Assembly (NCBI GenBank): GCA_030390025.1
Contig: CM059431.1
Location: 126,048,001 to 126,112,000 of the forward strand
Direction: 5' to 3'
Length of the DNA stretch: 64,000 bases
DNA from: Squalus acanthias
Taxonomy: Eukaryota
The position numbers and the translations under genes were made by a program. A model generated the notes under the pieces. It worked only from the letters and a program-made list of their open reading frames with translations, was not told where the DNA came from and searched no databases. This document shows positions 4,831 through 51,066 of the stretch, piece after piece (within the stretch, counting starts at the first letter, position 1; each line of letters opens with the position of its first letter).

Positions 4831-4837
4831 TAGCCTT

Positions 4838-21966: not shown

Positions 21967-23022
21967 TTATTGGAACCTCAGTCTGATGAGGCGGTCATGG
22001 ACTGACCTTCCAGAAGGCCAATTAAGTGGCTGCCTCCTCCCTCGCTCCTGTTCCTCCTCCTCCTCATCCTCCTTGTCTTCCTCTTCCTCCTCCTGAGGTG
22101 GTCCCGCAATCCCTGGTGGCAAGGGCTGGGTCTTCATGATGGCCAAGTTGTAGAGCATGCAGCAGACCATGACGAAATGCAACAGCCACTCAGCCGAGTA
22201 CTGGAGGGCTCCTCCCGAGCGGTCAAGGCAGTGGAACCATTGCTTGAGCACCCCAATGGTCTGCTCAATGATGTTCCTGGTGGCAGCATGGCTCTCATTA
22301 TATGAGTGCTGGGCAGGAGTGTTGGGGTTGCGGAGAGGAGTCATGAGCCAGGTGGAGAGCGGACAGCCCTTGTCTCCGACCAGCCAGCCGCGAGCTTGAC
22401 GTGGTGGCTGGAAGAGTGCTGGTGCAGGATGAAGGCGTCGTGGCTGCTGCCAGGATAGCAGGCATTGACATTGAGAACTCAGTGTGTGTGGTCACACACC
22501 AATTGCACATTAAGTGAGTGGTAGCCTTTGCGGTTACAGAAGAGGTCAGGATTGTTATGCAGTGCCCGCAAAACTACATGGGTGCAGTCAATGGCGCCCT
22601 GCACCATGGGGATTCCCACTACCCTGCAAAGCCACATGCATGCTCGTCCTGCTTCTCTCTGGTGATGGGGAAGGAAATGTAATCCTTCTCCTACTGTGAA
22701 GACTCTCTGTGACCTATCGATGCAGCGATGGACGGCGAACTGCGAGATGTTAGTTATGTCTCCTGTTGCATCTGCTGGTGAAGAACTTGACTGCCACTGA
22801 GAGAGCCGTGGTCACCCTGATCTGAGGCTCGAGGTCTGGGAGGCTGAGCTCTGTGACCACCTCCTTGGTGAAGCAGAGCCTTCTAATACACTGCTCCTCG
22901 CTTAATTGAAGGTAGAAGTGCTGTCGGAATACTCTCGGAGGCTGAGGCCTCCTGTTGAGAGCCTCCTCCTCCCTATGGCCACATGTTTGTTTCTTTCTCG
23001 CTGCCTGCGCTCCCTCGGCCAT
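21967..23022 (-). pseudogene. Harbinger DDE transposase (HARBI1-like), frameshifted
   Basis: [63 protein letters not shown]. Confidence 0.85.
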
Positions 23023-25149: not shown

Positions 25150-26353
25150 AATAATTGAACACTGAGAATTAAGAGTTGACATGACAGAAATCAACTCATT
25201 CTGCTTGACAATTTGTTTAAGAACCTAAAAAGGAAGATACTACAGATGCTGGTAACTCAAAATAGAACAGAAAATGTTGTCAGAACTCTGGGTGTTGCTG
25301 AGTTATTTCAGCATTTTCTCTTTTTCTTTGTTCAGAAATCCAATATTCTGGAGGAAGAAGCACCAGAGAGAAACAGTTATAACCGAGATTGTAGTAAGCC
25401 AGAGAGCTAAATAATACAAAGCATTAAACCAGTACTGGTAACTAACTCGGCTGACAACTCCTCCGCCTTCTAGATAACTTGATGTAGTCAGTCACAGTGA
25501 CTTACAAAGCTTTATGTAGGTCTCAGCTCCTGTTCTCATTATTCATATTTATGTTTCTCACATCTCCAAAGCATGACATTTAAAAAGTAATTTACAGACT
25601 GTTATACTAGGGAAGAAAAGGTTAATTGTATAGTTTTGTATTTTCTTTTAAATTGATTGTTCTTTGGTTCCTAAATTGTATTGTACAAGCCTACTGCAGC
25701 AGTTGGGTCATTTTTACAAACATGACAAATTCAGGTATGATTTTTTATTCTCATCAATTTTCTCTGGAGTTTCCCTCCCTTCCCTTCCTTTTCTGAATAT
25801 ATTAACTTCCTGCTGGGGTCGATTAGAGGGCACTGGCAGCCCTCTAGCACCTTGCCCAAGTAACCATTGTTCACCTCTGAGCCATGACAGTGAGGGCTGC
25901 AAAGCTATTGCAAGACTATTCATCTGTGAGACCGAGCTAAATCTATCTTCAGCTGACATCCACATACATGTGGTTTCAGCAGAGAATGTTTGATTGCAAA
26001 CAGGAGCAAAAACAGGATTGCTGAGGCCAATTAAAACAACACTACTGCCAACCCAGCTAAGATTAACTAACTCGCCACAGACTGTGGTTCAAACCTGAGA
26101 CCATCTCGGTCTACATGGTTGAGCCACTCGTTGGCTAGACTTGGCAAACAGCCTGAACCGTAGGTTTCTAGAAAGAACAGGGAACTTCAAATATAGAAAC
26201 TCTCAGATTTTTATAACATTGATACAACTAGGGGTTGTAGAATTCGCAATTATCGCGATTTCATTTTAATAAGGAGAAAACACAAGTTTCGTTCAAAACA
26301 GCTTTTATTTCAACGGAATGCTGTCAGGTTTAAATTGGACACAAGCAGCCTGT

Positions 26354-26834
26354 AAAATGGCCGCCGCACCGCGTGACAGAACATTCGAGACTTTTCGGCA
26401 GGCAGACAAGATGGCGTTCCAATAAACATTTTTGCAGGATCGATAACGATTCAGCACAGTGAAGACAATACACAGGACATTATGGGTTTACAGTATAAAC
26501 ATCGATACTGGGATCGGTCTCCCAGGTACAAAGGAAAGCCATCAAGGGCCCATCCAAAGGACATTAATATGTAAACTCCCAACGGCTCTACGATGAGAGA
26601 GCCGTTAGCAGGTAGTTATACAGGACACTTGGAAGCCCCAAACCCCTCCAGGGGGAACACCGACCGATTTGACAATGGGAGAAATATTAACAGGTACTCA
26701 AACATTCAGGAGTAGCCCCGAAACCCATTAAGGACAGAGATCACCCATACAGGACATTTTTTTGGGCGCCAAACCTTAAACAAAAGAATGGACATTGTAG
26801 TTGGGCGGGAAACGGAAGAACTGTGCACTATAAT
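26354..26834 (+). promoter_or_regulatory. Candidate LTR U3 promoter/enhancer
   Basis: YY1-like AAAATGGCCGCC (26354) and CAAGATGGCG (26407), CCAAT 26419, TATAAA 26494, GC box 26803, TATAAT 26829, recurring AGGACA motif. Confidence 0.5.
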
Positions 26835-27013
26835 TGCAGGCCCAAACCGTCCATTCGCTCTCTTGCCTCGTGTTCGTGACTCTTGCCGCTTGCTGCTGTT
26901 ATCATCGTGGCTGCTCCTGTGTTTTATCCGGTCGATTCGTAACCTCGTGGCTGCTCCTGGGTAAAAGACTGTTGCAAAGACCTATGTTGGTAGCTGGCAG
27001 CGGAACCAAAGGC

Positions 27014-27068
27014 CCGAGATGAGATGAGATGAGATGAGATGAGAGGAGATGAGAGGAGAAGAGAAGAA
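27014..27068 (+). repeat. (GAGAT)n/purine microsatellite inside the LTR (also at ~38020-38074)
   Basis: GAGATGAGATGAGATGAGATGAGATGAGAGGAGATGAGAGGAGAAGAGAAG. Confidence 0.9.
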
Positions 27069-27868
27069 GACCTTATCCATCGCCACGGTCAGTAAATCCC
27101 GACCGCGCCTGTAGGTCGATCAGCCAAGTCTTCTCGACAGGAAGTTTTCTTCTTTAACAAGACATATTGCATCGACGATAACTGGACTGTGCAAACACAT
27201 CGTATCAGCGATATTGACAACGGTGCTCCACCATACCCTGTATCCAACCAACAGAGGTCTTCACTACAGCGGACGGTCCAGCCGACTGACCGAGCAGCAG
27301 AAGCAGTAAACAAGTGGGACCAGGAGATCTCCTGACCAACACGTGGGTGCTGCGGTGAAAAACATCCGATCAGCTATTCGGGATTTTCTCCGAGTTATTA
27401 CGAGTGGTGAGCATGAGTCTCGGGATCCTACGAAGCTAGTTTTAGGATAGTTATTGATAGGGGAGGGTTGAAGTTTAAGGATATTTGTAATGTGTGCCCT
27501 ATTTACGTTGTGCTGGTCGTTCCTCGTTTCCCTAAGAGTGATTATAACTGGTTGTAAGATTGTACTGTCATTAATCTGTGCATATGACATGTATTTCATA
27601 ATTTTAAGTATCATGCAATAAAGATTTTCCATTTCGTACCGTTCAAACCAAGTCTACATGAGTTTTATCTCCATTACTGCTCTCGCATCTAAGTCCAGTG
27701 TCTAGAACCGTAAGGGAGAGTGATTCGAACCACTCACAGGGGTGTCTAGTGTTCCCAGACTGGCTGGAGACCAGGCCTAGACCCGCACTGACATACAGGC
27801 TGCACAGAGCCGCGTGAACCTCACAGGCCACGAGACACGCAGGGTCAGGAGAGTATCCCTTACAGAAA

Positions 27869-29680
27869 ATGGCGACCGCGGCAGGACACTGGCAGCGAGA
27901 GGGTAGTGTGTTAGATTTTGGAATGACTGTACGAAATGTGATGCAGGAAAAGATAGCGGATTACGTATTTGGAAAGGTTAATCTAACGAAAAAGTGGATA
28001 AGCGAACTGTTAGCGGATAAGAGCCCACTAGAGGCAGCTGAAAGGTGGACGGATAGTAAGGAGCATAAAAAGGCAGTTGAGAAAGCAGTCTGGCTTATGT
28101 GCTACAAAAGGCAGGTTCAGATTTCAAACCAGACCAATACAGCGCTAACCGCTCGAATCAAGCATCTAGAGGAGGAAATGGAGGAGAAGGTTTCTGGAGG
28201 GGAGGTGCTCATTAAGAGTTTAAATGAGTTACGCCAGGAAAGCCAGGAAGTCTCCAGTTACCTTAAAACAAGGGTAGAGTATCTCGAGTGCCAGATCACT
28301 GAAGCAAAATTAAACGAGAGTAGGATGAAGGAAAGATGTAACCGTCAAGCTGCCCAGATAAGAACTCAAGAAGAGAGCTTAATGGGGGTTAGGTCGGCGT
28401 ATAAGTTGGCCCTTGAGGATAAGTTTCAGGGAGCCGACCATAGCGCCTGCGAAAAAGAGATAGAGAGCCTCAAAAAGGCCGTGAATAATGCGAACGGCAT
28501 GGTGTGCCTTATTAATCCGTCGGCACGCCAGCCGCTAGTAAATGAGAGATTTAGAAATTCCCCACCAAGTAAAGCAGAAGAAGTAGTAGCCACTGCGCCC
28601 TCCGCGCCACCCAGCTATTCAGAAACCTGGGTTAGGGAGGAAGCAACGGAAGAAGCGAAAGAGCCCGTTGAAAAAGAGGTAGAAAAGGGATCGTTGTATC
28701 CAGTAACGGGGATTAAAAGGGGCCCAAGCAGAAACGGTGGGGAAGAACCGGGGGATCTCCTCGGACAGCTGGTGTTGCCTCACAGTTCACATCAGCTGAG
28801 GGCTATGATAAACCACGTAAGGAAGCTGACCGAGATAGACGACCCTTCCGTACATTTTAGGGAAGTTGAGCAAGCCGCAGCCATCAACGGCTGCGATGAT
28901 GGGGAGACAGCAAAAATGCTGCTGTTCTCTTTAGATAGCTCGGTCCTTCAGTGTCTCTCAGGCGATAGCAAGAGGGGTAATAAAAGTTATGAGGAATTGA
29001 AAAATGAGGTCCTAGAAGTAGTGGGAGCGAACGACGGAGGTCCGTTTGCTAGAGTGGGACAGACAGTGCAGATGGAGGGAGAACCCCCGAAGGTTTTTGC
29101 CGACAGGCTGTGGCCAGTATATGAGCGCAGCTGTCTAGGTGCGCCCGAGCGCGAAGATGTGGAAGGCGCCGCTTTAATTCATTGGCTTAGGTGCATAATA
29201 GCCAACAGTTTACCAGCCGTTAGAGAGCAGGCAAAAGCCTGGTTCGATCCCAATGACCTCAACCTTACGGAAGAGTCGGTCTTGAATCGACTCACGTTAG
29301 GTTACCGTAACATAAGGGGTATGGCAACACGTCCCTTTAAGGGAAGAGTACATGAGGTACGACCCGCAGCCCCGGCTCAAAGAGAGTGGCATCAGGAGGG
29401 TAATCGCGCCCCACAGGCAAGTAATGCCTGTTACGGGTGTGGGAAGACAGGGCACTGGCGCAAGCACTGCAGGAACCCTTGGAAGGATTCCAAGGATAAA
29501 AATCCCGCGGTCCGAACCCAGGCGCCTGTCCCGGCTAAGGAAGCAAAGGCACCCACCTCTCCCGAAGACCTCGAGGCAGTGTTAGGAGTCATGCGCAAGA
29601 TGGTTTTGAATGCGCGTGGACAGGTGGCGGTCGCAACCGGCCCCGTAGGTGCCGCAGGACCGTCTAATAGTGCCCCATGA
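27869..29680 (+). CDS. gag: Gag polyprotein (603 aa): coiled-coil N-terminal region, PSAPPSY late domain, probable capsid, single CCHC knuckle
   Basis: Position after LTR/PBS; CYGCGKTGHWRKHC (29429-29470). The true start could be a downstream Met. Confidence 0.92.
   Translation: MATAAGHWQREGSVLDFGMTVRNVMQEKIADYVFGKVNLTKKWISELLADKSPLEAAERWTDSKEHKKAVEKAVWLMCYKRQVQISNQTNTALTARIKHLEEEMEEKVSGGEVLIKSLNELRQESQEVSSYLKTRVEYLECQITEAKLNESRMKERCNRQAAQIRTQEESLMGVRSAYKLALEDKFQGADHSACEKEIESLKKAVNNANGMVCLINPSARQPLVNERFRNSPPSKAEEVVATAPSAPPSYSETWVREEATEEAKEPVEKEVEKGSLYPVTGIKRGPSRNGGEEPGDLLGQLVLPHSSHQLRAMINHVRKLTEIDDPSVHFREVEQAAAINGCDDGETAKMLLFSLDSSVLQCLSGDSKRGNKSYEELKNEVLEVVGANDGGPFARVGQTVQMEGEPPKVFADRLWPVYERSCLGAPEREDVEGAALIHWLRCIIANSLPAVREQAKAWFDPNDLNLTEESVLNRLTLGYRNIRGMATRPFKGRVHEVRPAAPAQREWHQEGNRAPQASNACYGCGKTGHWRKHCRNPWKDSKDKNPAVRTQAPVPAKEAKAPTSPEDLEAVLGVMRKMVLNARGQVAVATGPVGAAGPSNSAP
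27870..27887 (+). other. Primer-binding site, tRNA-Arg(TCG)
   Basis: TGGCGACCGCGGCAGGAC is complementary to ..GTCCTGCCGCGGTCG-CCA, the vertebrate tRNA-Arg(TCG) 3' end as I recall it; lies 5 nt (GAAAA) after the LTR. Confidence 0.85.
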
Positions 29681-32600
29681 CTAGAACCAGCACAGCCCGT
29701 CTACCTGTGTCCGCTCAGCTATGATGCGTGGAGGCGACCTGTGGTGGAGATGGAGGTAGAGAAACAAAAGGGCAGTTATTTGTTGGACACGGGAGCTTCT
29801 TGCACCATAATCCATACAGATGACCCTTTTGACTCGCCGCTATCTACCAAGGTCCCATTCACGCTAGCAGGGTTCACAGGGAAAGAACAGGCTGGCACGT
29901 TTTCCCTCCCGCTATCCATTCGTTTAGGGACACTTCGCCTTAAGTGGAAGTGTATGCTAATGGCATGGCAAAAGGGGGGTGGAAGAGGTATTCTCGGGTC
30001 CGATCTGCTAGCGGGACACGGGATCCTCGTGGACCTCAGAAATCACTGTCTCTGGGGGGCTAAAGGGGAAAAAGGCGAGGTAATGGTAATTCAAGGGGAG
30101 GAAGAAACAGGGGTCCTGTGTACCGTACAGCCATCCGGAGGCTACGACCTCAGGCTTATGGTCGCAGATGTCCCAACGGACATGCAAACGTACGTGACAG
30201 ATAATATGCACGCGTTTGCAACCCACAAGCACGATTGTGGGAGGGTGGTCGGGTTTGAGGTCAGCGTAGATGGGGACCCCATGACCCGACCCCAAAAGCA
30301 GTATAACTTCCCCAAAGAAGCAGAACCCGATATGGAGGCAGCAATGTCTTCCTTGGTGCAGCAGGGCGTGTTGAGGCCGATAGCCACACACGTGAACTCC
30401 CCATTATGGCCGGTTAGGAAGCCGGATAATTCGTGGAGAGCCACGGTGGACTACAGAGTCCTTAACAGTAACATCCCCGCCTGCGCGCCCACAGTAGCAG
30501 CAGTTGCTGACCTAATAGGGAGCATCCCAGCGTCCGCGACCACGTTCACGGTGCTGGATATCTCGAACGGTTTTTGGTCCATCCCGCTGCGGCGAGAGGA
30601 CCAGTACAAGTTTGCCTTTACGTTTAAAGGGCAACAGTACACGTGGAACTGCTTGCCACAAGGTTTCCACAATAGCCCCAGTATTTTTCACCAGTGTATG
30701 GCAGGAAGTTTAAAGGAGTTTAGTCAGCCCAATCAGATAGTACAGTATGTGGATGATTTGCTCCTATTTACGGACTCAAGGGAGGAGCACGGACCACTGC
30801 TGGACGAGTTATTGGAGCTGTTAGCGAGAAAGGGTTTTAAAGTAAACCCAAAGAAAGCACGTATCGGTCAGCAGGAAGTAAAATTCCTGGGACTGACCCT
30901 ACGCGCTGGGGAAAGAGCCATAGACAAAGCAAGGAGGGAGTCGGTACAAGAATTACCGATTCCCAACAACGTAAGGGGTGTGAGGTCCTTCTTGGGACTG
31001 ACCGGTTACTGCAGGGATTTTATCGAGGATTATGCGGCCACAGCGGCGCCGCTCCTCCGACTCCTCCATAAGGGAGTAGAGTGGCTTTGGGACGAGGGCT
31101 GCCAAGCAGCCTTCGAGAAGTTAAAAAGGGATCTGCAGACCGCGCCAGCCTTAGGGGCCATAGATGGGGGGAAGGAGTTTTTCCTGGAGGTAGCTGCCAG
31201 CGGAGACAGCTTAAGCGCCGTGCTGCTCCAAGAGCGTCACGGCAAGCTAAGGCCGGTTGTCTATTCATCCAGGGTATTAACGGATGTGGAGAGAAGTTTT
31301 TCCAATTGCGAAAGGCACCTTTTAGCCACGCATTGGGCTGTGAAAAGATCAGCGATCTTCACAGGGCTCTCTCCCATCACTCTCCTCACACATCACACAC
31401 CAACTAAGATGCTTCTGGATGGGAGGATTAAAGACGGGACCGTAAGCAGCGCACGCATTGCGCGTTGGACCCTTCTTCTCTCCCAGTTGGACATCAGAGT
31501 AAAAGGTCTTTGCGAGCCCAGGCTTGCGGCCAATTTGGTATACCCCGGTACAGCCCACCGGTGTTCGGTGGAGGGGGTGTGGGACGTCAACATAGGTTTA
31601 CGGGCCGGGATACATCCCACTGGGCGCGAGATTTATGTTGATGGGTCTAGCACAGTATCTGCTGGCGAGCGACTCACAGGGTGTGGAGTTTATGACCCTG
31701 CGGCAGACCTTGCCCTGGCGATCAAGCTCCCTAGCACCATGAGCGCGCAGCAGGCTGAGCTGTCTGCCGTGGTGTACGTGGTAACCCACCCAGACATTTT
31801 CCCAACCCCATACACGATTTGCTCGGACAGTATGTTCACCTGCAATTCGTGTACGGAATACCTGGCCATTTGGTCCCGCCGTGGATACACCTCCGCGGAC
31901 GGGCGACCTTTAACGGTAAAGCCCTTGCTGGAGAAGATCTTAGCAGCAGCAGTAGGGGAGGAAGGGGAGATTTTCATCCATAAGGTGAAAGCTCACTCCT
32001 CCACAGAGCCCCGTGGGGAGGGCAACCGGCAGGCGGATGCGCTAGCCAGGGAGGGTGCCCGCGACGGTACTTTCTGGAACCCCTATAGAACCGGACCCAT
32101 AGCAGCGGTCCGAGGTGGGGACGGGAATACCGGGAACACCAGGGTAGCATTGCCCCTAGACCTCAAGACCGTCCAAGCCCAGGATCCCGCCCTAAAAGCA
32201 GTCCTAAAAACGATTGCTGAGGGGAGGCAGGTAGAAGGTCCGTACAGTACGGCAACCCTCTCAGTTAAGGAAGGCATGCTGTTCCGCGAGGAGCAGTGGG
32301 TTGTGCCGCAGCAGCACAGGAGGGAATTCCTCCAGTTGGCTCACGAGGGACCAGGGGCAGGGCACCCCGGGCCCGAGGTTACCTGGCAACGGGTAGAGCA
32401 AGCGGGATGGTGGCCAGGGCTCAGGGAACAAGTCCGCGAGTTCTGTGCAAACTGTCTTGTGTGCGCTGCAAACAACCCAGACCCCCAGAAAAGGAAGGTG
32501 CCCATGGGACACGTAAGAAGGGTAGAGGGACCATGGCAGTCGATACAGATCGACTATATAGGACCCCTGCCCACCACCCAGGGAGGTTATAAGTACTGCC

Positions 32601-34183
32601 TCGTCCTGGTGGATGTGTTTTCCAAGTGGGTGGAAGCCTTCCCTTGTCGAACAGCTACGGCACTGGGTACAGCAAAAATCTTGGTCCGGGAAGTGTTCTC
32701 GCGGTGGGGACTCCCCCGTTTCGTGGAGTCAGACCAAGGGAGTCATTTCACCGGCCAGGTGATGCAGAACACCCTCATGCTTTTGGGCATTGAAGGGAAG
32801 TGGCACGTAGCACACAATCCCCAGTCATCCGGGATTGTTGAACGTATGAACCGGACCCTGAAGGAGAAATTGAGGAAAGAGACTAGGAACTCGCCCCAAA
32901 AGTGGGCGGAAGTTCTGCCTTTAGTCCTCATGGGGGTCCGGGCCAGTCAGTCAAAAAGTACGGGGTACTCCCCGCACGAGGTAATGACCGGCAGGCTCAT
33001 GCGAACCCCCACCCATGTGCTAGCCCCGGTGCTCACTGAGGGTCAGCTTCAAGAGATCAGCAGGGACAAGTTCGCCCAAACTCTCTTGGAGCGCCTGAAG
33101 CAAGTTTATGAGCAGGCGGCTGGGAACATGGGAAGGCAGCACCAGGGCAATCGCTTGTTGCTGGAACCCCGCAAAACGCGGGAGTGGGAAGTAGGAGACC
33201 AGGTCATGGTCAGAAACTACGCCAGAGTAGGGAGTCTGGAACCACTGTATATGGGACCCTACAACATTGTAGACAAGGCGAGTCCCATGGTTTACGCCGT
33301 AAAAGTACCTCGGCGCACTAAGTGGTTCCACATAAACCAATGTAAACTGTACCAGCCGGGTGCGCAAGGGAAAACTACAGGGGTAAATCCCGCCAATGGG
33401 AAAACACAGCCCCAGGTAGGACCACAAGGCACACAGGCAGGCGTAGCAGCTTGCATCAGGGGAAGGGACATCCCGGACGATCATGCAGCGTTTTTCTGGA
33501 GTTGGGGGTTAGATGACGAGGACCCCAGGGTACCCTGGTCAGATGAGGATAGTGCAGATGAGCATAGTGATGATGACGGGTGGTTTCAGAGGAACGGTCT
33601 GGAAGGATTGGGGCCGCTAGGTAGAGATCCATACGGGGTGGACACACAAGCTGCAGGTCCCGACAGCAGGAGGAAGGAGCTAGAGGAGGCCGGACCAGCC
33701 GCTATGTGGTTCCCAGAGGTGTGGCCGCCCGCTTTGAACGTCCAGTCCTCAGGGGAGGCAGAGTTCGCGAGTGAAGGGCCGCCTGCTGGGCCGAGCAGGG
33801 CGGGGCCCCGAACTGCCAGCCCCGAGGTTAGGGAGGCGGAGTCAGCGGAGGCGGGGCTGGCGCCTGTGATGGAACCCCAGGTCATCCCGTTGAAGGTCTC
33901 GGGACCCGGTCCGTCCGTCACGGAGCCCCCGCCCATAGCAATTCCCCGTAGGTCAAGCAGAGTACCCCAGCCCAGGAAGACGTGGTCAGGTCCACAGGCT
34001 GCCCCAGGGCGTAAGTTTCAGGTTAAGATAACCCGGGTAGAGACAGGCCACATCGAAGCAGTAACAGGCTGCGGCAGATCAGAGGAAAGGGTCAGCGCAG
34101 CAACAGGCTGCGGCAGATCAGAGGGAAGGGTCAGTGCCCTCCCACCGTCGGGAAGAGCTCGCAGCAGCCTTCTCAGGATTTAA
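29681..34183 (+). CDS. pol: Pol polyprotein: PR-RT-tether-RNase H-IN plus C-terminal extension; in-frame with gag
   Basis: LLDTGAS (PR); LPQGFHNSP and YVDD (RT); YVDGS..AQQAEL..SDS..GNRQAD (RNase H); HHCC and D,D(35)E; GPY motif. Frame is open from 29681. Confidence 0.96.
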   Translation, partial: LEPAQPVYLCPLSYDAWRRPVVEMEVEKQKGSYLLDTGASCTIIHTDDPFDSPLSTKVPFTLAGFTGKEQAGTFSLPLSIRLGTLRLKWKCMLMAWQKGGGRGILGSDLLAGHGILVDLRNHCLWGAKGEKGEVMVIQGEEETGVLCTVQPSGGYDLRLMVADVPTDMQTYVTDNMHAFATHKHDCGRVVGFEVSVDGDPMTRPQKQYNFPKEAEPDMEAAMSSLVQQGVLRPIATHVNSPLWPVRKPDNSWRATVDYRVLNSNIPACAPTVAAVADLIGSIPASATTFTVLDISNGFWSIPLRREDQYKFAFTFKGQQYTWNCLPQGFHNSPSIFHQCMAGSLKEFSQPNQIVQYVDDLLLFTDSREEHGPLLDELLELLARKGFKVNPKKARIGQQEVKFLGLTLRAGERAIDKARRESVQELPIPNNVRGVRSFLGLTGYCRDFIEDYAATAAPLLRLLHKGVEWLWDEGCQAAFEKLKRDLQTAPALGAIDGGKEFFLEVAASGDSLSAVLLQERHGKLRPVVYSSRVLTDVERSFSNCERHLLATHWAVKRSAIFTGLSPITLLTHHTPTKMLLDGRIKDGTVSSARIARWTLLLSQLDIRVKGLCEPRLAANLVYPGTAHRCSVEGVWDVNIGLRAGIHPTGREIYVDGSSTVSAGERLTGCGVYDPAADLALAIKLPSTMSAQQAELSAVVYVVTHPDIFPTPYTICSDSMFTCNSCTEYLAIWSRRGYTSADGRPLTVKPLLEKILAAAVGEEGEIFIHKVKAHSSTEPRGEGNRQADALAREGARDGTFWNPYRTGPIAAVRGGDGNTGNTRVALPLDLKTVQAQDPALKAVLKTIAEGRQVEGPYSTATLSVKEGMLFREEQWVVPQQHRREFLQLAHEGPGAGHPGPEVTWQRVEQAGWWPGLREQVREFCANCLVCAANNPDPQKRKVPMGHVRRVEGPWQSIQIDYIGPLPTTQGGYKYCLVLVDVFSKWVEAFPCRTATALGTAKILVREVFSRWGLPRFVESDQGSHFTGQVMQNTLMLLGIEGKWHVAHNPQSSGIVERMNRTLKEKLRKETRNSPQKWAEVLPLVLMGVRASQSKSTGYSPHEVMTGRLMRTPTHVLAPVLTEGQLQEISRDKFAQTLLERLKQVYEQAAGNMGRQHQGNRLLLEPRKTREWEVGDQVMVRNYARVGSLEPLYMGPYNIVDKASPMVYAVKVPRRTKWFHINQCKLYQPGAQGKTTGVNPANGKTQPQVGPQGTQAGVAACIRGRDIPDDHAAFFWSWGLDDEDPRVPWSDEDSADEHSDDDGWFQRNGLEGLGPLGRDPYGVDTQAAGPDSRRKELEEAGPAAMWFPEVWPPALNVQSSGEAEFASEGPPAGPSRAGPRTASPEVREAESAEAGLAPVMEPQVIPLKVSGPGPSVTEPPPIAIPRRSSRVPQPRKTWSGPQAAPGRKFQVKITRVETGHIEAVTGCGRSEERVSAATGCGRSEGRVSALPPSGRARSSLLRI

Positions 34184-34466
34184 AGGGGCCGCCCTGAGAA
34201 CGGGCGGCATTGTAAAGTTATTAGTTTAAGGTTTTAAGTTTTAGTTTAAAGTTTTAAGTAGTTTTAATAAGTTTAAGTTTGTAGTGTTTTTAACAGATAA
34301 CGACAAATGATGGGAGTTTTAAGGCTAGGTTTAGAGGAAGTCTATTTAGCAAACGTTGAAGTTTACGTGAGGCGAGGTCAGGGGACCCGCTCACCCGTCA
34401 CAAAAGCCAGAGACTTTTTGCGAGGCTGGCTACCTCATTCTATCTGATCACAGGAACCAAGGAAGG

Positions 34467-36818
34467 ATGGAACGACTTCTAGTTTTGCTCGTGGCAATCG
34501 GATGTGGATTGGCCTATCGGGGCCTCACCAAGGATGTCGTGGTGTTTGGATGTTCCGGGGACACGGCCCCCATCGCGGTGGATGGGACCGGAAGACGGAA
34601 GGCAGAAGGGACCAGCACCTATTTCCACAAGGGAAGGTGGCCAGGATGGCTGGGAACGAACTCAACGGAGTATTCCAGCACATCGGGGTTCGCCTACAAA
34701 GAGACTTCTTTAATGTGCCCCAAAGTACGGATCATCGCACCCAGGATCAGCGTCACCGTCGGCAAACGGATTTGTTTGACTTGCAGTGGGAATGTCCCAT
34801 TGAGCCGATGGTGGTGGCTGCGAAAGCTGAGCAAAACTATGAGGAACTCTTCGGTTGAGTGGGAGCGACTGGGTAATAATACCCATCGGACAATTACGGG
34901 GACAGATGGACAAGTGAAAGTCTGTTGGGACAAATGGTGGGAACCAGATGAGGGGATTTATGTTTGTATGTGGGGGTCAAAGTACGTTTGCCCCAAAGGC
35001 ATCTCCATATTCTTTATTAACCAGTGGCAGGATAACGGACAGGGGATGAGGTGGGATGCGAGCACCAGGGGGTGCGGAGCCCCATACTCTCCGATCCCAG
35101 TAAATGCCACTGAGCTCATTACGCGCCCACGCAAAGCCCCGCCCACGATTCCGGTAGTTCTAACTGAAGAGGAAGGGTGCCCTAAAACTAGTAAGGGACC
35201 CGGGAACGGTTTGGTACTGGTCCCCACAGACCAGATACTATTTCAGGGGGTACATTACGCGGTGGCCTCGGTGATTTTAAATCTCACTGAGGTACGGTTA
35301 CCAGAGTGGTGCCCCAAAAAGACGGAACAGTTGTACCAGGTCCTGTTGACCAAGATGTTCAGGCAATTTTACGAGTTTGATTTTGCAGAAATCGATAAGA
35401 CAAGTTTATACACCGCACCGCAGGAAGTTTTGGACCAAGTAGGGAGGCAAAGAAGGGGTTTGGTGAACGATGCGTTCACTGCTTTTAACACAGGGACATC
35501 TGTGGTCAACGCTCTAGACAGTGTGGAGCTGCAGACCCAGATTAATGGTTTAAAAACACAGTTAAAGGATATTCTTACAGATGAGAATAAAGTGGTAGGG
35601 TCGGGTCTGCACGAGGACCAAGCCATGACACTACACTTAAAAGAGATTATAGCAGAGCTGGAGAAACATGCGCGTACGGTAAATGCCCTGATCAGGGAAG
35701 ATCGGAATGCATCCGATCAGGCTGCGCAGAACGAGGTGTGCGTGCTTTACGGGGCGTGGTTACTGGGCGAGGGCCGCAGTAATTTGGAGGATTTAAAACA
35801 AGGTTTGGTCCCGTCCTGGATAAGTAACAAACACCTGCGGGCGCTCCACCCTTTTCAGAATGCATTAAGTCCGTGCCAGCTCAGGCTAGCTTCAGAAGCT
35901 TACCCAGTCCCCGTGGACTGCGGACGTTCAAACCATACTATTATGGGAATAGTATTACGCATGCCGGTTTTGGGCAACACAGCAAAGCCCGCCCCGGTGT
36001 ATCGGGTAGAGAACATTGGTGTCATTCAGGGGGGAGCCCACATTCGTTATGCAGCGGTTCCACCTTACGTCATCCGCTGGGAGCAAACGATGACAGGTAC
36101 AGATCTCTCTGGTTGTCGTGGCAGGGGAGCACACATAATACTGTGCCCCCAGCACTTGAATGCCTTTTTAACACCACAGTGCGGGTTCAGAACGGCTGGC
36201 GCCAAGTCCATGAATTGCACCATGGAGGCAATGGCACAAGATCATGTGCCTCCGCAGGTAGCATACATCGGGGGTGGAACATATTGTGTTACCACTGCAG
36301 CGCAACACTACCAGCATGGAAACCGTAGCCGGTGTCCGGTGAGTGACAGCAGTTTCTGTTTTAAACCCAGGGCTGAAGTTCAAGTAGCACAACAGCGAAT
36401 TATCCCAATCCCTGAACCATCCACTGTTCATCTCACAGTAAAAGAGAATTTTACCGACTTGCAGCGATTTGTCGCACATTTTGGGTACCTCATTCCCCCT
36501 CTCCCCGAGCATTTAACCAAACTTCTGAAAGCCGTCGCGGTGTCACAAAAGCATTTTTATACCTTAGAGCAGAAAACTGTCGAGATAGGTACAGACATTT
36601 TGGACATAGTGGTTCCACCGTGGTGGAATCTGTTCACGAATATTGAAGTGCCCTCATGGGTCAGAATAGCCTCCCACATTTTAGTCGTCTGTCAAGTGTT
36701 TATTGTAGTATACCTTTTGTTCATACATTGTAAAAGAGACAAGCGCCTCACCAAGCATGAGAACACGGGAGAGTGGCGAGAACGTTACGTGCGCGTGCAC
36801 GATGAGAGCGCAGTGTAA
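34467..36818 (+). CDS. env: Envelope glycoprotein (783 aa), F-type class I fusion protein with N-terminal Ig-like domain
   Basis: Signal peptide, RQRR furin site (35445-35456), fusion peptide and heptad repeats, Cys-rich region, C-terminal TM (~36657-36731), multiple N-x-S/T sequons. Confidence 0.9.
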   Translation: MERLLVLLVAIGCGLAYRGLTKDVVVFGCSGDTAPIAVDGTGRRKAEGTSTYFHKGRWPGWLGTNSTEYSSTSGFAYKETSLMCPKVRIIAPRISVTVGKRICLTCSGNVPLSRWWWLRKLSKTMRNSSVEWERLGNNTHRTITGTDGQVKVCWDKWWEPDEGIYVCMWGSKYVCPKGISIFFINQWQDNGQGMRWDASTRGCGAPYSPIPVNATELITRPRKAPPTIPVVLTEEEGCPKTSKGPGNGLVLVPTDQILFQGVHYAVASVILNLTEVRLPEWCPKKTEQLYQVLLTKMFRQFYEFDFAEIDKTSLYTAPQEVLDQVGRQRRGLVNDAFTAFNTGTSVVNALDSVELQTQINGLKTQLKDILTDENKVVGSGLHEDQAMTLHLKEIIAELEKHARTVNALIREDRNASDQAAQNEVCVLYGAWLLGEGRSNLEDLKQGLVPSWISNKHLRALHPFQNALSPCQLRLASEAYPVPVDCGRSNHTIMGIVLRMPVLGNTAKPAPVYRVENIGVIQGGAHIRYAAVPPYVIRWEQTMTGTDLSGCRGRGAHIILCPQHLNAFLTPQCGFRTAGAKSMNCTMEAMAQDHVPPQVAYIGGGTYCVTTAAQHYQHGNRSRCPVSDSSFCFKPRAEVQVAQQRIIPIPEPSTVHLTVKENFTDLQRFVAHFGYLIPPLPEHLTKLLKAVAVSQKHFYTLEQKTVEIGTDILDIVVPPWWNLFTNIEVPSWVRIASHILVVCQVFIVVYLLFIHCKRDKRLTKHENTGEWRERYVRVHDESAV

Positions 36819-37230
36819 TGGGAAAATGGCGTCACTCCCGCTCGCCACGTGCGCCGCGGAAGTTTGTACTCAGTGTAAATACGTTGGAAACTCGACATGT
36901 TTAAGAGTTGGGATTTGTTTATTTTGGTGATGGTGTTGATTGTTTGGTTTTTTGGGTTTTGTTTTTCCTTTCCCTGAATAAAAGATAAATGTACAGGTGA
37001 TGCGTGAGGTATCGGCCTGGTTACGCCGGGAAGGAAGACAAGTGGTGTAAGTTTAAGGGCAAATGATGCCTATGGTGATATAAAGTGTGATTTTCTTGGG
37101 AAATAAGGACGACACAGAGACCCTAGTGAAGTTAAAATTTTATGGGATTAATTTACTGGATTCGGAGTGAAATCGAGATAAGATTGCTCACCACTGAGTT
37201 TTTGATACGATAAGCGGAGTTATTCGCATC

Positions 37231-37242
37231 AACAGGAGGGAC
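37231..37242 (+). other. Polypurine tract
   Basis: AACAGGAGGGAC immediately before the 3' LTR TG. Confidence 0.8.
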
Positions 37243-38870
37243 TGTAGAATTCGCAATTATCGCGATTTCATTTTAATAAGGAGAAAACACAAGTTTCGTT
37301 CAAAACAGCTTTTATTTCAACGGAATGCTGTCAGGTTTAAATTGGACACAAGCAGCCTGTAAAATGGCCGCCGCACCGCGTGACAGAACATTCGAGACTT
37401 TTCGGCAGGCAGACAAGATGGCGTTCCAATAAACATTTTTGCAGGATCGATAACGATTCAGCACAGTGAAGACAATACACAGGACATTATGGGTTTACAG
37501 TATAAACATCGATACTGGGATCGGTCTCCCAGGTACAAAGGAAAGCCATCAAGGGCCCATCCAAAGGACATTAATATGTAAACTCCCAACGGCTCTACGA
37601 TGAGAGAGCCGTTAGCAGGTAGTTATACAGGACACTTGGAAGCCCCAAACCCCTCCAGGGGGAACACCGACCGATTTGACAATGGGAGAAATATTAACAG
37701 GTACTCAAACATTCAGGAGTAGCCCCGAAACCCATTAAGGACAGAGATCACCCATACAGGACATTTTTTGGGCGCCAAACCTTAAACAAAAGAATGGACA
37801 TTGTAGTTGGGCGGGAAACGGAAGAACTGTGCACTATAATTGCAGGCCCAAACCGTCCATTCGCTCTCTTGCCTCGTGTTCGTGACTCTTGCCGCTTGCT
37901 GCTGTTATCATCGTGGCTGCTCCTGTGTTTTATCCGGTCGATTCGTAACCTCGTGGCTGCTCCTGGGTAAAAGACTGTTGCAAAGACCTATGTTGGTAGC
38001 TGGCAGCGGAACCAAAGGCCCGAGATGAGATGAGATGAGATGAGATGAGAGGAGATGAGAGGAGAAGAGAAGAAGACCTTATCCATCGCCACGGTCAGTA
38101 AATCCCGACCGCGCCTGTAGGTCGATCAGCCAAGTCTTCTCGACAGGAAGTTTTCTTCTTTAACAAGACATATTGCATCGACGATAACTGGACTGTGCAA
38201 ACACATCGTATCAGCGATATTGACAACGGTGCTCCACCATACCCTGTATCCAACCAACAGAGGTCTTCACTACAGCGGACGGTCCAGCCGACTGACCGAG
38301 CAGCAGAAGCAGTAAACAAGTGGGACCAGGAGATCTCCTGACCAACACGTGGGTGCTGCGGTGAAAAACATCCGATCAGCTATTCGGGATTTTCTCCGAG
38401 TTATTACGAGTGGTGAGCATGAGTCTCGGGATCCTACGAAGCTAGTTTTAGGATAGTTATTGATAGGGGAGGGTTGAAGTTTAAGGATATTTGTAATGTG
38501 TGCCCTATTTACGTTGTGCTGGTCGTTCCTCGTTTCCCTAAGAGTGATTATAACTGGTTGTAAGATTGTACTGTCATTAATCTGTGCATATGACATGTAT
38601 TTCATAATTTTAAGTATCATGCAATAAAGATTTTCCATTTCGTACCGTTCAAACCAAGTCTACATGAGTTTTATCTCCATTACTGCTCTCGCATCTAAGT
38701 CCAGTGTCTAGAACCGTAAGGGAGAGTGATTCGAACCACTCACAGGGGTGTCTAGTGTTCCCAGACTGGCTGGAGACCAGGCCTAGACCCGCACTGACAT
38801 ACAGGCTGCACAGAGCCGCGTGAACCTCACAGGCCACGAGACACGCAGGGTCAGGAGAGTATCCCTTACA
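37243..38870 (+). repeat. 3' LTR (1628 bp)
   Basis: Direct repeat of the 5' LTR, one T fewer in a T-run; followed by TSD GGGT. Confidence 0.97.
38623..38628 (+). terminator. Candidate proviral polyadenylation signal AATAAA (5' LTR equivalent 27617-27622)
   Basis: The only AATAAA I found downstream of the TATA candidates in the LTR; preceded by a U-rich tract. Confidence 0.55.
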
Positions 38871-38907
38871 GGGTATAAATTCTCTGAATAGAGGATAAAA
38901 TTACATT

Positions 38908-39635
38908 GGCCCAGAAATTAAACATGGATGGTTCCCGCGGGGGTAAGGATTCCCCGCGATATCGCACTCCGCGCCTACCTTTTTGCTCCGGGCCCACACG
39001 AACTTTAGTTTCAAAGGTTCTCTCTGTTGGAACCGTGCAGTGTTTGCGTGACCCAGAGGCGCAATTAGTTCGTGCGAGCTCTGGGATCACGTGATTCAGT
39101 TAGAGCCAATGGCAGCACACCATCTTTCATTCATAGTTTTGACAGGAAGACCTGTCAAAGCTATGAATACTACACCCCCCCAAAAGAACAGCTAAACCTC
39201 AATTAAATTTTAAAAAAGCCATCACATTAATAAAATAAGTATAGTTAAATAAATTAACCACTTTAAACAAAAAATTAAATTTTTGAAAAAATTTAAAATC
39301 TTTTTAAAAGTTATAAAAATAAACTTACCTTTCTTTAAAGTCTCTAAAAAAGATAAACCTGTTGAAAAAAATTTAAAATAACACTTAATTAACTACTTAC
39401 CTTGTTAAAAGGGGGTCCTACGCCTGCTTTCTTTGTGTGTAAAATCTTCACCACTTACCTGCGCGTTCAAAGCTGGAAAAATAACTAAAAATCACTTAGG
39501 AACCGCCCCCTTTTCAATTCACGAAGTGCCGGTTTCCCGCGCATGCGCAGTGCATGCAGGAAACCGGCAATTCGGGATCTAATACGCGAGAGTACACAGT
39601 GCGTACTCTCGCGTATTAGGTTTAATTTTCGGGCC
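38908..39635 (-). mobile_element. Harbinger-type MITE related to family A, inverted
   Basis: TIRs GGCCCAGAAATTAAAC / GTTTAATTTTCGGGCC; reverse-complement similarity to 140-430 and 24440-24800. Confidence 0.8.
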
Positions 39636-39809
39636 AATATCTGTACATATAGTTAAATGCATTGATAGCAAAATGAGAAAAGCAAGACCTTGGAATGGGG
39701 TCCATAAATAGTGGAGAAATGGAATCTCAAACTGTAATGATTACGATGTCAGTTGAGGAAGTTCAAAAGGACACAGCATTGATTATGTTGTTAAAATGCG
39801 AATGCAAAC

Positions 39810-43745: not shown

Positions 43746-44212
43746 AAAGAAAGACTTGGATTTATATAGCGCCATTCACGACCAACAGACATCTCAAAGT
43801 GCTTTACAGCCAATTAAGTACTTTTGGATTGTAGTCACTGTTGTAATGTAGGAAACGTGGCAGCCAATCTGTGCACAGCAAGCTCCCACAAACAGCAATG
43901 TGATAATGACCAAATAATCAGGTTTTTTTTTTAAGTTGATTGTGGGATAAATATTGGACAGGACACCAGGGATAACTCCCCTGCTCTTCTTCAAAATAGT
44001 GTCATGGGATCTTTTATGTCCATCTTGAGAGAGCAGATAGGGCCTCGGTTTAACGTCTCATCTGAAAGATGGCACCTCCGACAGTGCAGCACTCCCTCAG
44101 CACTGCACTGGAGTGTCAGCCTGGATTTTTGTGCTCAAGTCCCTGGAGTGGGACGTGAACCTTACAACCTTCTGACTCAGAGGCGAGAGTGCTACCCACT
44201 GAGCCACAGCTA
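43746..44212 (-). mobile_element. Full-length DeuSINE (SacSINE1-like, tRNA-derived head)
   Basis: Minus strand GTGGCTCAGTGGGTAGCAC (A box)..GGTTCACGTCCC (B box), Deu core and CTTTCTTT tail. Confidence 0.9.
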
Positions 44213-44309
44213 ACACACTGTGTACTTAAATAATGAATAGGAGTAAGGGGATATTAAACTAAAAAAATATATATACATAAATATCGTAAGCAGCTAAGCG
44301 TTAAAGCAA

Positions 44310-47300: not shown

Positions 47301-47513
47301 AAAAAAGTAGTTTGCTTTTATCTGGTCTTTACTAGATAAAGAGGAGGTACTTAAAAGGTTGGCAGTGCTCAAAGTAGAAAAGTCACCCGGTCCGGATGGG
47401 ATACATCATTGGTTGCTGAAGGAAGGAAGGGTGGAAATTGCAGAGCCTCTGCCACAATCTTGCAATCCGCCTTTAGATATAGGAGTGGTGCCAGAGGACT
47501 GGAGCATTGCTAA
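44310..47513 (+). mobile_element. Older CR1 LINE, 5' portion (ORF1 zinc-finger/esterase and ORF2 endonuclease remnants)
   Basis: AVVIRDSIFKGID..VNVRTNDV esterase remnant; degenerate EN; ends at GVVPEDWSIAN where a younger CR1 is inserted. Confidence 0.8.
46200..47036. mobile_element. Harbinger-type MITE inserted in the older CR1
   Basis: TIRs GGGCTGGATTTTGTCA / TGACAAAATCCAACCC; CR1 sequence resumes on both sides. Confidence 0.8.
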
Positions 47514-50500: not shown

Positions 50501-51066
50501 TTAGGCCTCAGCTAGAGTACTGCGTGCAGTTCTGGTCACCATATTACAGGAAAGATGTGATTGCACTAGAGAGGGTACAGAGGAGATTTACAAGGATGTT
50601 GCCGGGAGTAGAGAATCTTAACTATGAGGAAAGACTGGATAGGCTGGGTTTGTTTTCCTTGGAACAGAGGAGGCTGAGGGGAGAACTTATTGAGGTGTAT
50701 AAAATTATGAGGGGCCTAGATAAAGTGGATAGAAAAGGACCTACTTCCCTTAGCAGAGGGGTCAAAAACCAGGGGACATAGATTTAAATGAATTGGTGGA
50801 AGGTTTAGAGGGGATTTGAGGAGAAATGTTTTCACCCAGAGGGTTGTGGGGGTCCGGAACTCACTGCCTGAAAGGGTGGTAGAGGCAGAAACCCTAACCA
50901 CATTTAAAAAGTACTTGGATGTGCACTTGGGATGCTGTAACCTGCAGGGCTACGGACCAAGAGCTGGGAAGTGGGATTAGGCTGGATAGTTCTTTGTTGG
51001 CTGGCGCGGACATGATGGGCCGAAATGGCCTCCTTCCGTGCCGTAACTTTCTATGATTCTATGATT
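47514..51066 (+). mobile_element. Younger CR1 LINE, 5'-truncated in ORF1; ORF2 with a few stops and frameshifts
   Basis: VGDSIVRG..VHIGTND (SGNH esterase); YFNARS, ITETW, GDFN, SDH (APE); DFSKAFD, QGSVLGP, FADD (RT); CTATGATTCTATGATT tail. Confidence 0.93.

Follow-up and report, generated by a model that had tools for sequence, protein, structure and literature searches.

Nearly all retroviruses known from cartilaginous fishes are ancient fossils; those of the elephant shark, for instance, date back tens of millions of years, with ages of about 55-75 My given in the accessible part of the literature. Lineage I of these elephant-shark elements (CmiERV) has been included in the clade of Orthoretrovirinae around the snakehead retrovirus, SnRV (‘clade Huo’; Xu et al., 2018, in excerpt), and the hosts of this clade comprise fish, amphibians, reptiles and birds, with a SnRV-related endogenous retrovirus (ERV) in a chimaera (PMC12193657, PMC6001957 and PMC4422223, each in the portion available). 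SnRV possesses accessory open reading frames (ORFs), and the available text of PMC1224870 reports one Cys-His box and gag-pol read-through for it. Spumaretrovirinae are characterized in the accessible sections of PMC1224870 and PMC5210030 by a Gag without Cys-His box, a Pol which is not made as a Gag-Pol fusion, and accessory genes 3' of env. Lokiretroviruses, finally, were described as a sister lineage of the canonical retroviruses with an Env derived from mononegaviral F proteins (Wang & Han, 2020/2021; PMC7947760); their integrase is nearest to CGIN1/NYNRIN, young copies are present in some hosts, and none was found in the six chondrichthyan genomes surveyed. A survey of germ-line-invading retroviruses (ERVi) in 2004 vertebrates, for which 13 cartilaginous fishes were screened, has no chondrichthyan among its 37 listed host orders, as far as the accessible part of the report extends (Wang et al., 2023; PMC10435555).

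In the present study a window of 64,000 nucleotides from contig CM059431.1 of Squalus acanthias was analyzed, which contains a complete provirus at positions 26236-38870. We consider it likely that this is a full-length member of a very young, high-copy ERV family with a canonical polymerase, with SnRV as nearest labelled relative and with an Env of the F type, which spread by infection or reinfection. All features given below lie on the + strand. The 5' LTR (26236..27864, 1629 nt) and the 3' LTR (37243..38870, 1628 nt), delimited by LTR alignment and reading, both run from TG to CA; TATAAA is situated at 26494 and AATAAA at 26421 and 27617. The target-site duplication GGGT, 4 bp in length, was read directly at 26232..26235 and 38871..38874, as was the polypurine tract AGGAGGGAC (37234..37242), which adjoins the 3' LTR. 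Over 1628 positions the LTRs display no mismatch and a single 1-nt gap (T7 versus T6, at ~26757 and ~37764), so that the initial annotation, which had matched them by eye except for one T and had noted the perfect duplication, was right on both. Two further alignment mismatches, at 26234 and 26235, are flank positions outside the LTR. Layout and near identity of the LTR pair mark a recent insertion of an intact provirus, as had been proposed; if the lineage evolves slowly, identical LTRs would still be compatible with an insertion as old as a few million years. The objection that the identity of the LTRs might be an assembly collapse is improbable, since LTRs of different copies of the element differ by 1-5% and in length, and if two copies had been joined into a chimera, identical LTRs flanked by a matching duplication would not result.

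The primer-binding site (PBS; 27870..27887) is the complement of the 3' end of host tRNA-Arg(TCG) plus CCA and overlaps the first in-frame ATG of gag (27869). The exact 18 nt occur 2835 times in the host genome, and in one unit of a tandem array ARAGORN found a tRNA-Arg(tcg) gene whose 3' end matches the PBS; at four loci where the complement of the PBS is not followed by C no tRNA was detected. Reverse transcription would be primed by host tRNA-Arg(TCG), and the 4-bp duplications would be made on integration. Five Rfam matches to the element (E 0.27-0.37) all lie far under the gathering scores and were taken as chance.

Genes were called stop to stop with the standard code. The frame of gag is open at 27818-29680 (27869..29680 from the first in-frame ATG) and encodes a protein with an N-terminal part rich in coiled coil and with one Cys-His box (CX2CX4HX4C). 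For this box zf-CCHC reached only E 0.33 in Pfam, no Pfam family was assigned to Gag, and comparison with the PDB gave only zinc-knuckle-sized, non-significant matches (nucleocapsid chains, E about 0.1; all >= 0.08). Pol (29681..34183) continues in the same frame behind a single TGA at 29678-29680, in the context TGA-CTAG. This context promotes read-through of stop codons, and Gag-Pol is presumably produced in this way, as judged from the context; a single Cys-His box and gag-pol read-through are likewise features of SnRV. Within pol the protease (about 29729-30016), reverse transcriptase (RT; about 30413-30901), a tether of degenerate RNase H (about 31088-31486), RNase H (about 31628-32059), the integrase zinc domain (about 32303-32479), the integrase core (about 32531-32821) and a SH3-like domain (about 33224-33352) are followed by a tail of 260 aa under low constraint (33398-34180). 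Pfam recognized RVP, RVT_1 (E 9.7e-36), RT_RNaseH_2/RT_RNaseH, RNase_H PF00075 (2e-19), Integrase_H2C2 and rve, and DTG, YVDD and the D,D,E residues of integrase are readable in the translation, in agreement with the earlier statement that gag, pol and env are open with catalytic motifs intact.

The env frame is open at 34371-36818 and encodes 783 aa from the first Met (34467..36818): a signal peptide, an N-terminal part of ~230 aa without confident model, a F2-like and F1-like fusion machine with a furin-type site RQRR (35445-35456) and a membrane anchor (about 36657-36737), and a short tail; ten N-glycosylation sequons were counted. The tail comprises ~30 aa, versus 136 aa given for SnRV in the available source, and the element leaves no room for accessory ORFs like those of SnRV after env, the gap to the 3' LTR being 424 nt only, with no ORF of at least 130 aa in this gap or in the LTRs. 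The LTRs of 1.6 kb further set the element apart from the SnRV clade, as may the F-type Env. According to its structural model, Env has a paramyxovirus-F-like fold, the model being mediocre overall (mean pLDDT 59, pTM 0.43) and confident only at residues about 270-345 and 440-680. Foldseek returned 238 PDB matches at E <= 0.001 (hPIV3 F, E 2.8e-11), and those listed were all F proteins of paramyxoviruses or pneumoviruses; VIA-align gave a Z of 12.2 with Langya virus F (rmsd 6.7 over 339 residues) and of 8.8 with the post-fusion foamy virus fusion protein. In BFVD the model matched mononegaviral glycoproteins, baculovirus F, paramyxovirus F0 and the walleye retrovirus Env. SnRV Env was absent among the best 50 BFVD matches listed, and hence Env and Pol may differ in history. 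For entry the virus would use a class I fusion protein of the paramyxovirus F type that is cleaved by furin, with the extra N-terminal domain probably binding the receptor.

The resemblance of Env to mononegaviral fusion proteins, to which the initial annotation referred, holds by fold, but not by sequence: Env has no Pfam family, PF00523 (fusion glycoprotein F0) gave no match even at E <= 10, and it matched none of the 20 scanned out of 49 Env relatives. Named relatives of Env come from a skate, a sawshark, a houndshark, a bamboo shark and frogs, Xenopus tropicalis included, which makes a cartilaginous-fish host plausible for what had been called, more narrowly, an apparent shark genome.

The provirus had been called lokiretrovirus-like, and the element indeed displays their LTR-gag-pol-env-LTR layout, dual RNase H and furin-cleaved Env with F-like fusion machine, and Xenopus tropicalis is listed among their hosts (PMC7947760). 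The F fold is not diagnostic of this lineage, however, because it is common to foamy virus Env, baculovirus F and errantivirus F, and for lokiretroviral Env a PF00523 match at E 2.2e-7 was reported (PMC7947760), which is missing here. The assignment is contradicted above all by the polymerase. In a tree of 57 RT rows (‘quick’ search; compiled without SnRV, foamy viruses, ERV-L, alpha-, beta-, delta- and lentiviruses) a clade with dual RNase H received a support of 100, with P0137/P0143/P0146 as its basal branch, and the window RT was placed in the remaining clade of 35 rows (support 100), together with gamma-like ERVs and Pol proteins of bird ERVs. The supplement of the lokiretrovirus paper (PMC7947760) contains a 12-mer of P0137 in 15 places, in the Loki consensus and in alignment rows, and these matches identify the P0137/P0143/P0146 branch as lokiretroviruses; the canonical retrovirus clade is their sister in the tree. 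Forcing the window RT into the lokiretrovirus clade was rejected in the AU test (p-AU 0.005, lnL difference 55), the group tested having been defined with the tree already in view. The RT motifs LPQGF and QYVDDLL are likewise those of canonical retroviruses, versus CPFGY and IYVDDIL in Loki rows. Considering also that lokiretroviruses were lacking in the chondrichthyan genomes surveyed, we regard a lokiretroviral origin as highly improbable; RT grouping within the Retroviridae proper was, in spirit, an outcome which the initial annotation itself had named as speaking against it.

On its sequence, with dual RNase H and a RT inside the canonical clade, the polymerase is assigned to canonical Retroviridae. 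Ty3/Gypsy (Metaviridae) was considered as well and rejected, as 19 Gypsy rows are set off on the outgroup side by a branch of support 100 and RNase_H PF00075 is present besides the tether. Within the canonical clade the window forms a sub-clade with coelacanth and frog sequences (SH-aLRT 88%), one of four sub-clades in a polytomy. In the database the element comes closest to Pol proteins from frog and coelacanth ERVs, which are labelled ‘NYNRIN-like’ by NCBI; among 94 matches those so labelled were ERV Pol with RT and RNase H, and no bona fide NYNRIN was among them. As nearest labelled relative SnRV is suggested, by one motif and by-eye identity only: a 10-mer of the window RT occurs three times in the same lokiretrovirus supplement, each time in a SnRV row, and identity with the printed SnRV row amounts to ~44% over ~259 residues.

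A foamy-like, spumavirus-related ERV has to be weighed as well, since such elements were reported from cartilaginous fishes and foamy Env is F-like. Endogenous foamy viruses of cartilaginous fishes are reportedly the subject of a J Virol paper of 2023, in which the present element may already be described. The F-like fusion subunit (PMC11468914, in excerpt) is shared with foamy viruses, as are similarities in integrase, for which PFV integrase was the best match in the PDB (118 bits), and the long LTRs and 4-bp duplication, which the available part of PMC5210030 gives for foamy-like ERVs of fish; moreover, foamy gp130 was the best PDB profile match of the Env family (E 0.0063). In contrast to foamy viruses, as the excerpts cited above describe them, the element has a zinc knuckle in Gag and a pol in the gag frame behind one stop, and it has neither space for accessory genes between env and the 3' LTR nor a match to any foamy Pfam family. 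Pol scored 239 bits with MuLV/XMRV RT-RNase H and less, 217 bits, with foamy PR-RT-RNase H (Ty3 RT, 145 bits), and by eye the printed rows of ZFERV-2 and AciFLERV resemble the window RT less than SnRV does. A foamy-like origin therefore appears unlikely.

The provirus had been taken for a single recent integration. Copies were counted in the host assembly as patterns with <= 2 mismatches in 49 nt, with a reversed control giving 0 each time, and 1468 close matches were obtained for a segment of pol RT, 547 for a segment of env and 383 for a marker of a pol-deleted gag-env derivative. The provirus belongs to a very young ERV family whose copies exceed a thousand. Every one of the 55 env protein matches scored is full-length and without stops, and 42 of them tie with the score of the window copy itself. 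LTR pairs could be scored in nine fetched copies, with 0/1604, 0/1611, 0/1614, 1/1623, 0/1592, 0/1498, 4/1592, 4/1659 and 4/840 mismatches; six of the nine have their own perfect 4-bp duplication, one has three of four bases, and two lie in tandem arrays. The same copies are only 98.0-99.5% identical to the window copy (LTRs 95-99%) and represent separate, young insertions. Pol was missing from five of ten copies, and three of ten had a 1-nt indel in gag. The nearly identical LTR pairs distinguish this family from the old elephant-shark elements. Of the three marks of ERVi in the accessible part of PMC10435555, two are found here, apart from one homopolymer indel, and the third is insertional polymorphism; the copy number far exceeds the handful that is typical of ERVi according to the same portion of the text. 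Among the 15 of 67 joints listed at the window locus none was an empty-site joint, and one contig stops 4 nt before the LTR, the contigs being fragmentary and of low coverage. A collection of viral contigs contained no relative by Pol alignment, with 0 of 34 pattern matches confirmed. Among 20 sequencing runs that contain the stretch none is listed as RNA; one run, which may be RNA, has a coverage of the element that is higher in env than in pol and far higher in the LTR than in pol, a pattern not distinguishable from low-pass DNA.

The high copy number, the tandem arrays and the pol-less derivative could also be expected of an intracellular retrotransposon, whose intact env would be a passenger or kept for a function in the host, no infectious virus being involved. 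Selection on the genes speaks for a different course. Nei-Gojobori dN/dS was 0.058 in env, 0.08 in pol and 0.21 in gag, and env is under strong purifying selection (about 0.06), the strongest of the three genes; dS in env was about 2.7 times that in pol. In seven copies picked by LTR similarity, and hence not chosen on env, this gene was complete throughout, with synonymous to non-synonymous codon differences of 8:1, 5:1, 10:1, 27:3, 23:5, 27:4 and 25:3; two further copies, picked by pol, had an open env with 40:5 and an env with 46:12 and one stop, so that a stop occurred in one of the nine copies not selected on env. Ten other copies displayed no amino-acid change at 48 variable env sites, a figure which is biased, because these copies were picked by env protein identity. 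Such constraint across young insertions is expected only if env is needed in each replication round, a reasoning found in the available part of PMC5210030, and speaks for a spread through infection or reinfection, while co-option by the host would keep one locus, not hundreds. Purely intracellular retrotransposition is thus judged quite unlikely.

In the preferred reading of a young family spread by infection or reinfection, the insertions would have been seeded independently, in large number and very recently by a replicating virus population which needed env as it diversified, through infection or reinfection of the germ line, and the pol-deleted gag-env derivative would have been copied in trans alongside the full-length element. 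Infectivity and activity at the present day are inferences, as are read-through and the precise placement with respect to SnRV, while anatomy, copy numbers, LTR identity, selection on the genes, Env fold, primer tRNA and the exclusion from the lokiretrovirus clade were shown. The family is apparently active and a candidate for the first ongoing germ-line invasion in cartilaginous fishes. A wider proposal, which we regard as tentative and rather doubtful, is that a SnRV-related retrovirus with F-type fusion protein circulates now, or did so until very recently, in elasmobranchs and colonises their germ line, with more than a thousand insertions, a trans-complemented gag-env satellite and near-identical copies in several host species. 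If true, an ongoing retroviral invasion would thereby be documented for the first time in cartilaginous fishes, and the finding would suggest that the F-type Env is ancestral to, or was widely exchanged among, early-branching lineages such as lokiretroviruses, foamy viruses and SnRV-like viruses. Through its intact genes and constrained env, such a family would make a virus of these fishes, still living or only just extinct, accessible to study, and the tolerance of a genome to a large recent burst could be examined as well. The combination of a canonical polymerase with a F-type fusion protein also bears on the origin of retroviral envelopes and on whether the Env fold can serve as a lineage marker; here it misled the earlier assignment.

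Next to the provirus the window contains fragments of LINE endonuclease/RT and of Harbinger-type DDE transposases, which fits the heavily decayed neighbours noticed at the outset.

The provirus (LTR-gag-pol-env-LTR, 26236–38870 of the window) is delimited by two long direct repeats lying ~11 kb apart, which in pairwise alignment correspond to a 5' LTR of 1629 nt (26236–27864) and a 3' LTR of 1628 nt (37243–38870). Over 1628 aligned positions the pair displays no substitution, and its only gap, of one base, lies where a T7 run faces T6; two further aligned mismatches fall in the flank just beyond the LTR. The LTRs start with TG and finish with CA, GGGT is present on both sides of the provirus, the purine tract AGGAGGGAC adjoins the 3' LTR, and TGGCGACCGCGGCAGGAC starts six bases past the 5' LTR. 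With the standard code, gag, pol and env all read as long open frames, pol continuing in the gag frame beyond one stop codon; Pfam domains in pol comprise protease, RT, a degenerate RNase H ('tether'), RNase H, the integrase zinc domain and the integrase core. The surroundings contain broken LINE-type endonuclease/RT frames and fragments of Harbinger-type DDE transposases (5614–6645 and 21967–22491, minus strand; 48353–50781 and 56900–57418, plus strand). The initial annotation, which had described LTRs identical save for one T, a perfect GGGT target-site duplication, open gag, pol and env, and decayed neighbours, was thus right in every particular of its observation. The right flank (38852–39800) is a very high-copy repeat in sequencing runs, with a summed depth above that of the element. 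GC and AT skew are strong at 12001–16000 and 44001–52000 (GC skew -0.33 to -0.23 and +0.27 to +0.38), the latter stretch overlapping a LINE fragment.

The primer-binding site was found to be complementary to the 3' end (plus CCA) of the host tRNA-Arg(TCG), and a gene with the matching 3' end was located by ARAGORN inside a tandem tRNA array. On host contig C26 (40.46–40.89M) long tandem arrays of a 1623-bp unit carry one tRNA-Arg(TCG) gene per unit. Gag ends at a TGA codon followed by CTAG (TGA-CTAG), a context that promotes read-through in vertebrates and was kept in all seven anchor-matched copies. Within 27866–27890, gag's first in-frame ATG (27869) shares two bases with the primer-binding site; the element then has either almost no leader or a Gag that starts further along, at the Met in position 19 or 25 of the frame.

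In comparisons with PDB sequences, Pol matched the MuLV/XMRV RT-RNase H with 239 bits, the foamy PR-RT-RNase H with 217 and the Ty3 RT with 145, and the best integrase match was PFV integrase. Among named database entries, those closest to the RT-RNase H region are 'NYNRIN-like' proteins from the coelacanth and three frogs (43–45% identity), followed by gamma-like ERVs (30–35%) and Ty3/Gypsy (25–30%). An RT tree of 57 rows was calculated from 136 hits with at least 330 RT positions covered (IQ-TREE quick search, LG+C20 PMSF); 22 Gypsy rows were picked as outgroup, the tree was rooted on 19 Gypsy rows, and its rows exclude SnRV (snakehead retrovirus), foamy and ERV-L sequences. Sequences with dual RNase H form one clade (support 100), whose basal branch consists of the killifish protein P0137 together with P0143 and P0146 (support 97). 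All other dual-RNase-H rows, the window included, form a clade with support 100, in which four groups arise from a polytomy: the window's own, with coelacanth and frog proteins (88), a Xenopus-containing, a bird and a gamma-like-ERV-containing group. Branches were labelled by motif search in the supplement of the lokiretrovirus paper, with the consensus proteins and RT alignments printed there. Since the P0137 12-mer spanning YVDD has 15 occurrences in that supplement, in Loki rows, the basal branch represents the lokiretroviruses; the motifs taken from the proteins of coelacanth, bullfrog and Xenopus had none. The published topology, with lokiretroviruses as sister to canonical retroviruses, was hence recovered. 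The earlier designation of the element as lokiretrovirus-like did not survive this analysis, as its RT falls in the support-100 clade beside the Loki branch, and uniting the window and its 89%-identical relative with that branch, a grouping named after the tree had been seen, was rejected by the AU test (p 0.005, lnL difference 55).

A 10-mer of the window RT occurs three times in the same supplement, in each case in the SnRV row, and identity to the printed SnRV row, judged by eye, is ~44% over ~259 residues, clearly above that to the printed Loki, ZFERV-2 and MuLV rows. As far as its sequence tells, the element has one Cys-His box in Gag and a predicted gag-pol read-through frame, both of which were reported for SnRV (PMC1224870); it differs in both from foamy viruses, which lack them according to the available text of PMC1224870 and PMC5210030. 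Placement as SnRV-like is the best reading of the shared motif and the by-eye comparison, both of which stand outside the computed tree. The SnRV clade, 'clade Huo' in PMC6001957, includes ERVs of fish, amphibians, reptiles and birds (PMC12193657), and an SnRV-related ERV lineage was reported in the elephant shark (PMC4422223).

Env comprises 783 aa from the first Met, with a signal peptide, ten N-glycosylation sequons, a furin-type site RQRR (residues 327–330), a membrane anchor (residues ~731–757) and a short tail. Word-based and exhaustive HMMER searches yielded 49 hits, including many fragments and chimeric gene models, confined to cartilaginous fishes and frogs: Rhinoraja (74–75% identity), Pristiophorus (52–59%), Mustelus (32%), Chiloscyllium (28%), Pelodytes (21%), Mantella (19%) and also Xenopus. 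PF00523 was detected in none of the 20 relatives scanned, and one of these 20 showed a weak Baculo_F match (E 0.0011). Among PDB sequences, foamy gp130 was matched best (E 0.0063) by a profile built from the query, one cluster member and 34 of the 49 hits (36 sequences in all). The AlphaFold2 model on that alignment is mediocre overall (pLDDT 59) and confident at residues ~270–345 and 440–680. Foldseek returned 238 PDB matches at E <= 0.001, those listed being all paramyxovirus or pneumovirus F, with hPIV3 F as the best (2.8e-11). VIA-align gave Z 12.2 for Langya virus F (rmsd 6.7, 339 residues; model residues 277–739), Z 10.9–12.1 for Nipah, NDV, hPIV3 and RSV F, and Z 8.8 for the foamy post-fusion protein, and BFVD matches were mononegaviral glycoproteins, baculovirus F, paramyxovirus F0, walleye retrovirus Env and feline foamy virus gp130. 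On the strength of these matches the modelled fusion machine is F-type, preceded by an N-terminal part of ~230 aa without a model. Such an Env explains the initial impression of a lokiretrovirus; it is no lineage marker, because the fold is also found outside lokiretroviruses.

The provirus is not a lone one. A six-frame search of the 3.71-Gb host assembly with the Env protein gave 55 scored candidates, all full-length without stops and 42 of them scoring equal to the window's own copy, besides 13,076 loose, unscored ones. Pattern counts over the whole assembly (at most two mismatches in 49 nt; reversed control 0 every time) amounted to 1468 for a pol RT segment and 547 for an env segment, and the 18-nt primer-binding site had 2835 exact matches. 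The env count is an undercount, because two copies with a pol but no env segment match do carry env, at ~95% nucleotide identity.

Ten copies were fetched, picked from the list of env protein matches, five of which are full-length. Mismatches between paired LTRs in the nine scorable copies were 0/1604, 0/1611, 0/1614, 1/1623, 0/1592, 0/1498, 4/1592, 4/1659 and 4/840; six of the nine have their own perfect 4-bp duplication, one retains three of the four bases, and two lie in LTR-sharing tandem arrays. Overall identity to the window copy is only 98.0–99.5%, and that of the LTRs (1498–1659 nt) 95–99%. Since LTR pairs are near-identical within copies, yet the copies differ, the differences between copies predate integration and arose in a replicating lineage, and the insertions themselves are young. 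Seven clean pairs, including that of the window, show one mismatch in ~11,170 nt, giving a mean age of the order of 0.2 My at 2.2e-10 per site per year, the rate assumed for the elephant shark (PMC4422223). Taking the window copy by itself, 3 events in 1628 nt set the 95% upper bound, which is ~4 My at this rate and ~0.9 My at 1e-9 per site per year; the insertion is thus very recent, as had been claimed, in substitutions and not necessarily in years.

Compared with the window, env of the ten env-selected copies, a biased set picked for identical protein, differs at 48 sites, all of which are third-position and synonymous. Copies not picked on env point the same way: env is complete in all seven copies picked by LTR similarity, a set unbiased as to env, with synonymous to non-synonymous codon differences of 8:1, 5:1, 10:1, 27:3, 23:5, 27:4 and 25:3, and of two copies picked by pol, one has an open env and a ratio of 40:5, the other one stop and 46:12. 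Nei-Gojobori dN/dS was 0.058 in env, where 45 variable codons are synonymous-only and 10 change an amino acid, 0.08 in pol and 0.21 in gag. Purifying selection on env among individually young insertions is the pattern expected from infection or reinfection, not from intracellular copying, following the logic laid out in PMC5210030. Constraint is weak in the 260-aa pol tail, where 9 codons are synonymous-only and 14 change an amino acid, and three of the ten fetched copies have a 1-nt indel in gag. Synonymous divergence in the same copies (window 27869–36815 and the fetched full-length copies) is 0.033 in env, 0.023 in gag and 0.012 in pol; the ~2.7-fold excess of env over pol may be due to lineages having recombined or to one pol having swept recently.

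At least 54% of sampled 31-mers from the first 10 kb were present in each of 20 public runs from ten studies and seven organism codes. Organism B contigs show 0–8 letter differences from the window copy per 300–540 nt, no more than copies inside the assembly differ from each other; these matches may stem from sister species or from spread between species. A lokiretrovirus survey found none in six chondrichthyan genomes (PMC7947760), the passages checked in the literature on lokiretroviruses in sharks or cartilaginous fishes report none, and a survey of invading ERVs, in which 13 cartilaginous fishes were screened, names no chondrichthyan order among 37 host orders (PMC10435555). The element may nonetheless have been described before, for instance among cartilaginous-fish endogenous foamy viruses or in repeat libraries. 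It is best read, from its sequence, as a canonical, SnRV-like endogenous retrovirus, notable for its youth, copy number, strongly conserved F-type env and a pol-less satellite.

This satellite is represented by the other five fetched copies, which share a deletion of element positions ~3477–7162, whereby protease, RT, RNase H and integrase are almost entirely lost. The deleted part is replaced by one 342-nt filler, 96–99% alike among the five; gag, an in-frame 386-aa ORF beyond the gag stop (filler and pol tail) and env are retained. The assembly contains 383 occurrences of one 49-mer from the filler, and comparison of the filler with the window gave no match. One example lies on contig C4 (43.74M), with the filler at ~3477 of the element as in the four others; the filler contains an imperfect internal repeat of ~90 nt (75–79% identity). 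LTR-sharing tandem arrays were observed at C3:64286060–64318191, C3:117.09–117.10M and C3677:120706–139695; one array on C3 has six filler matches at ~6417 bp spacing, and another is laid out as LTR-internal-LTR-internal-LTR.
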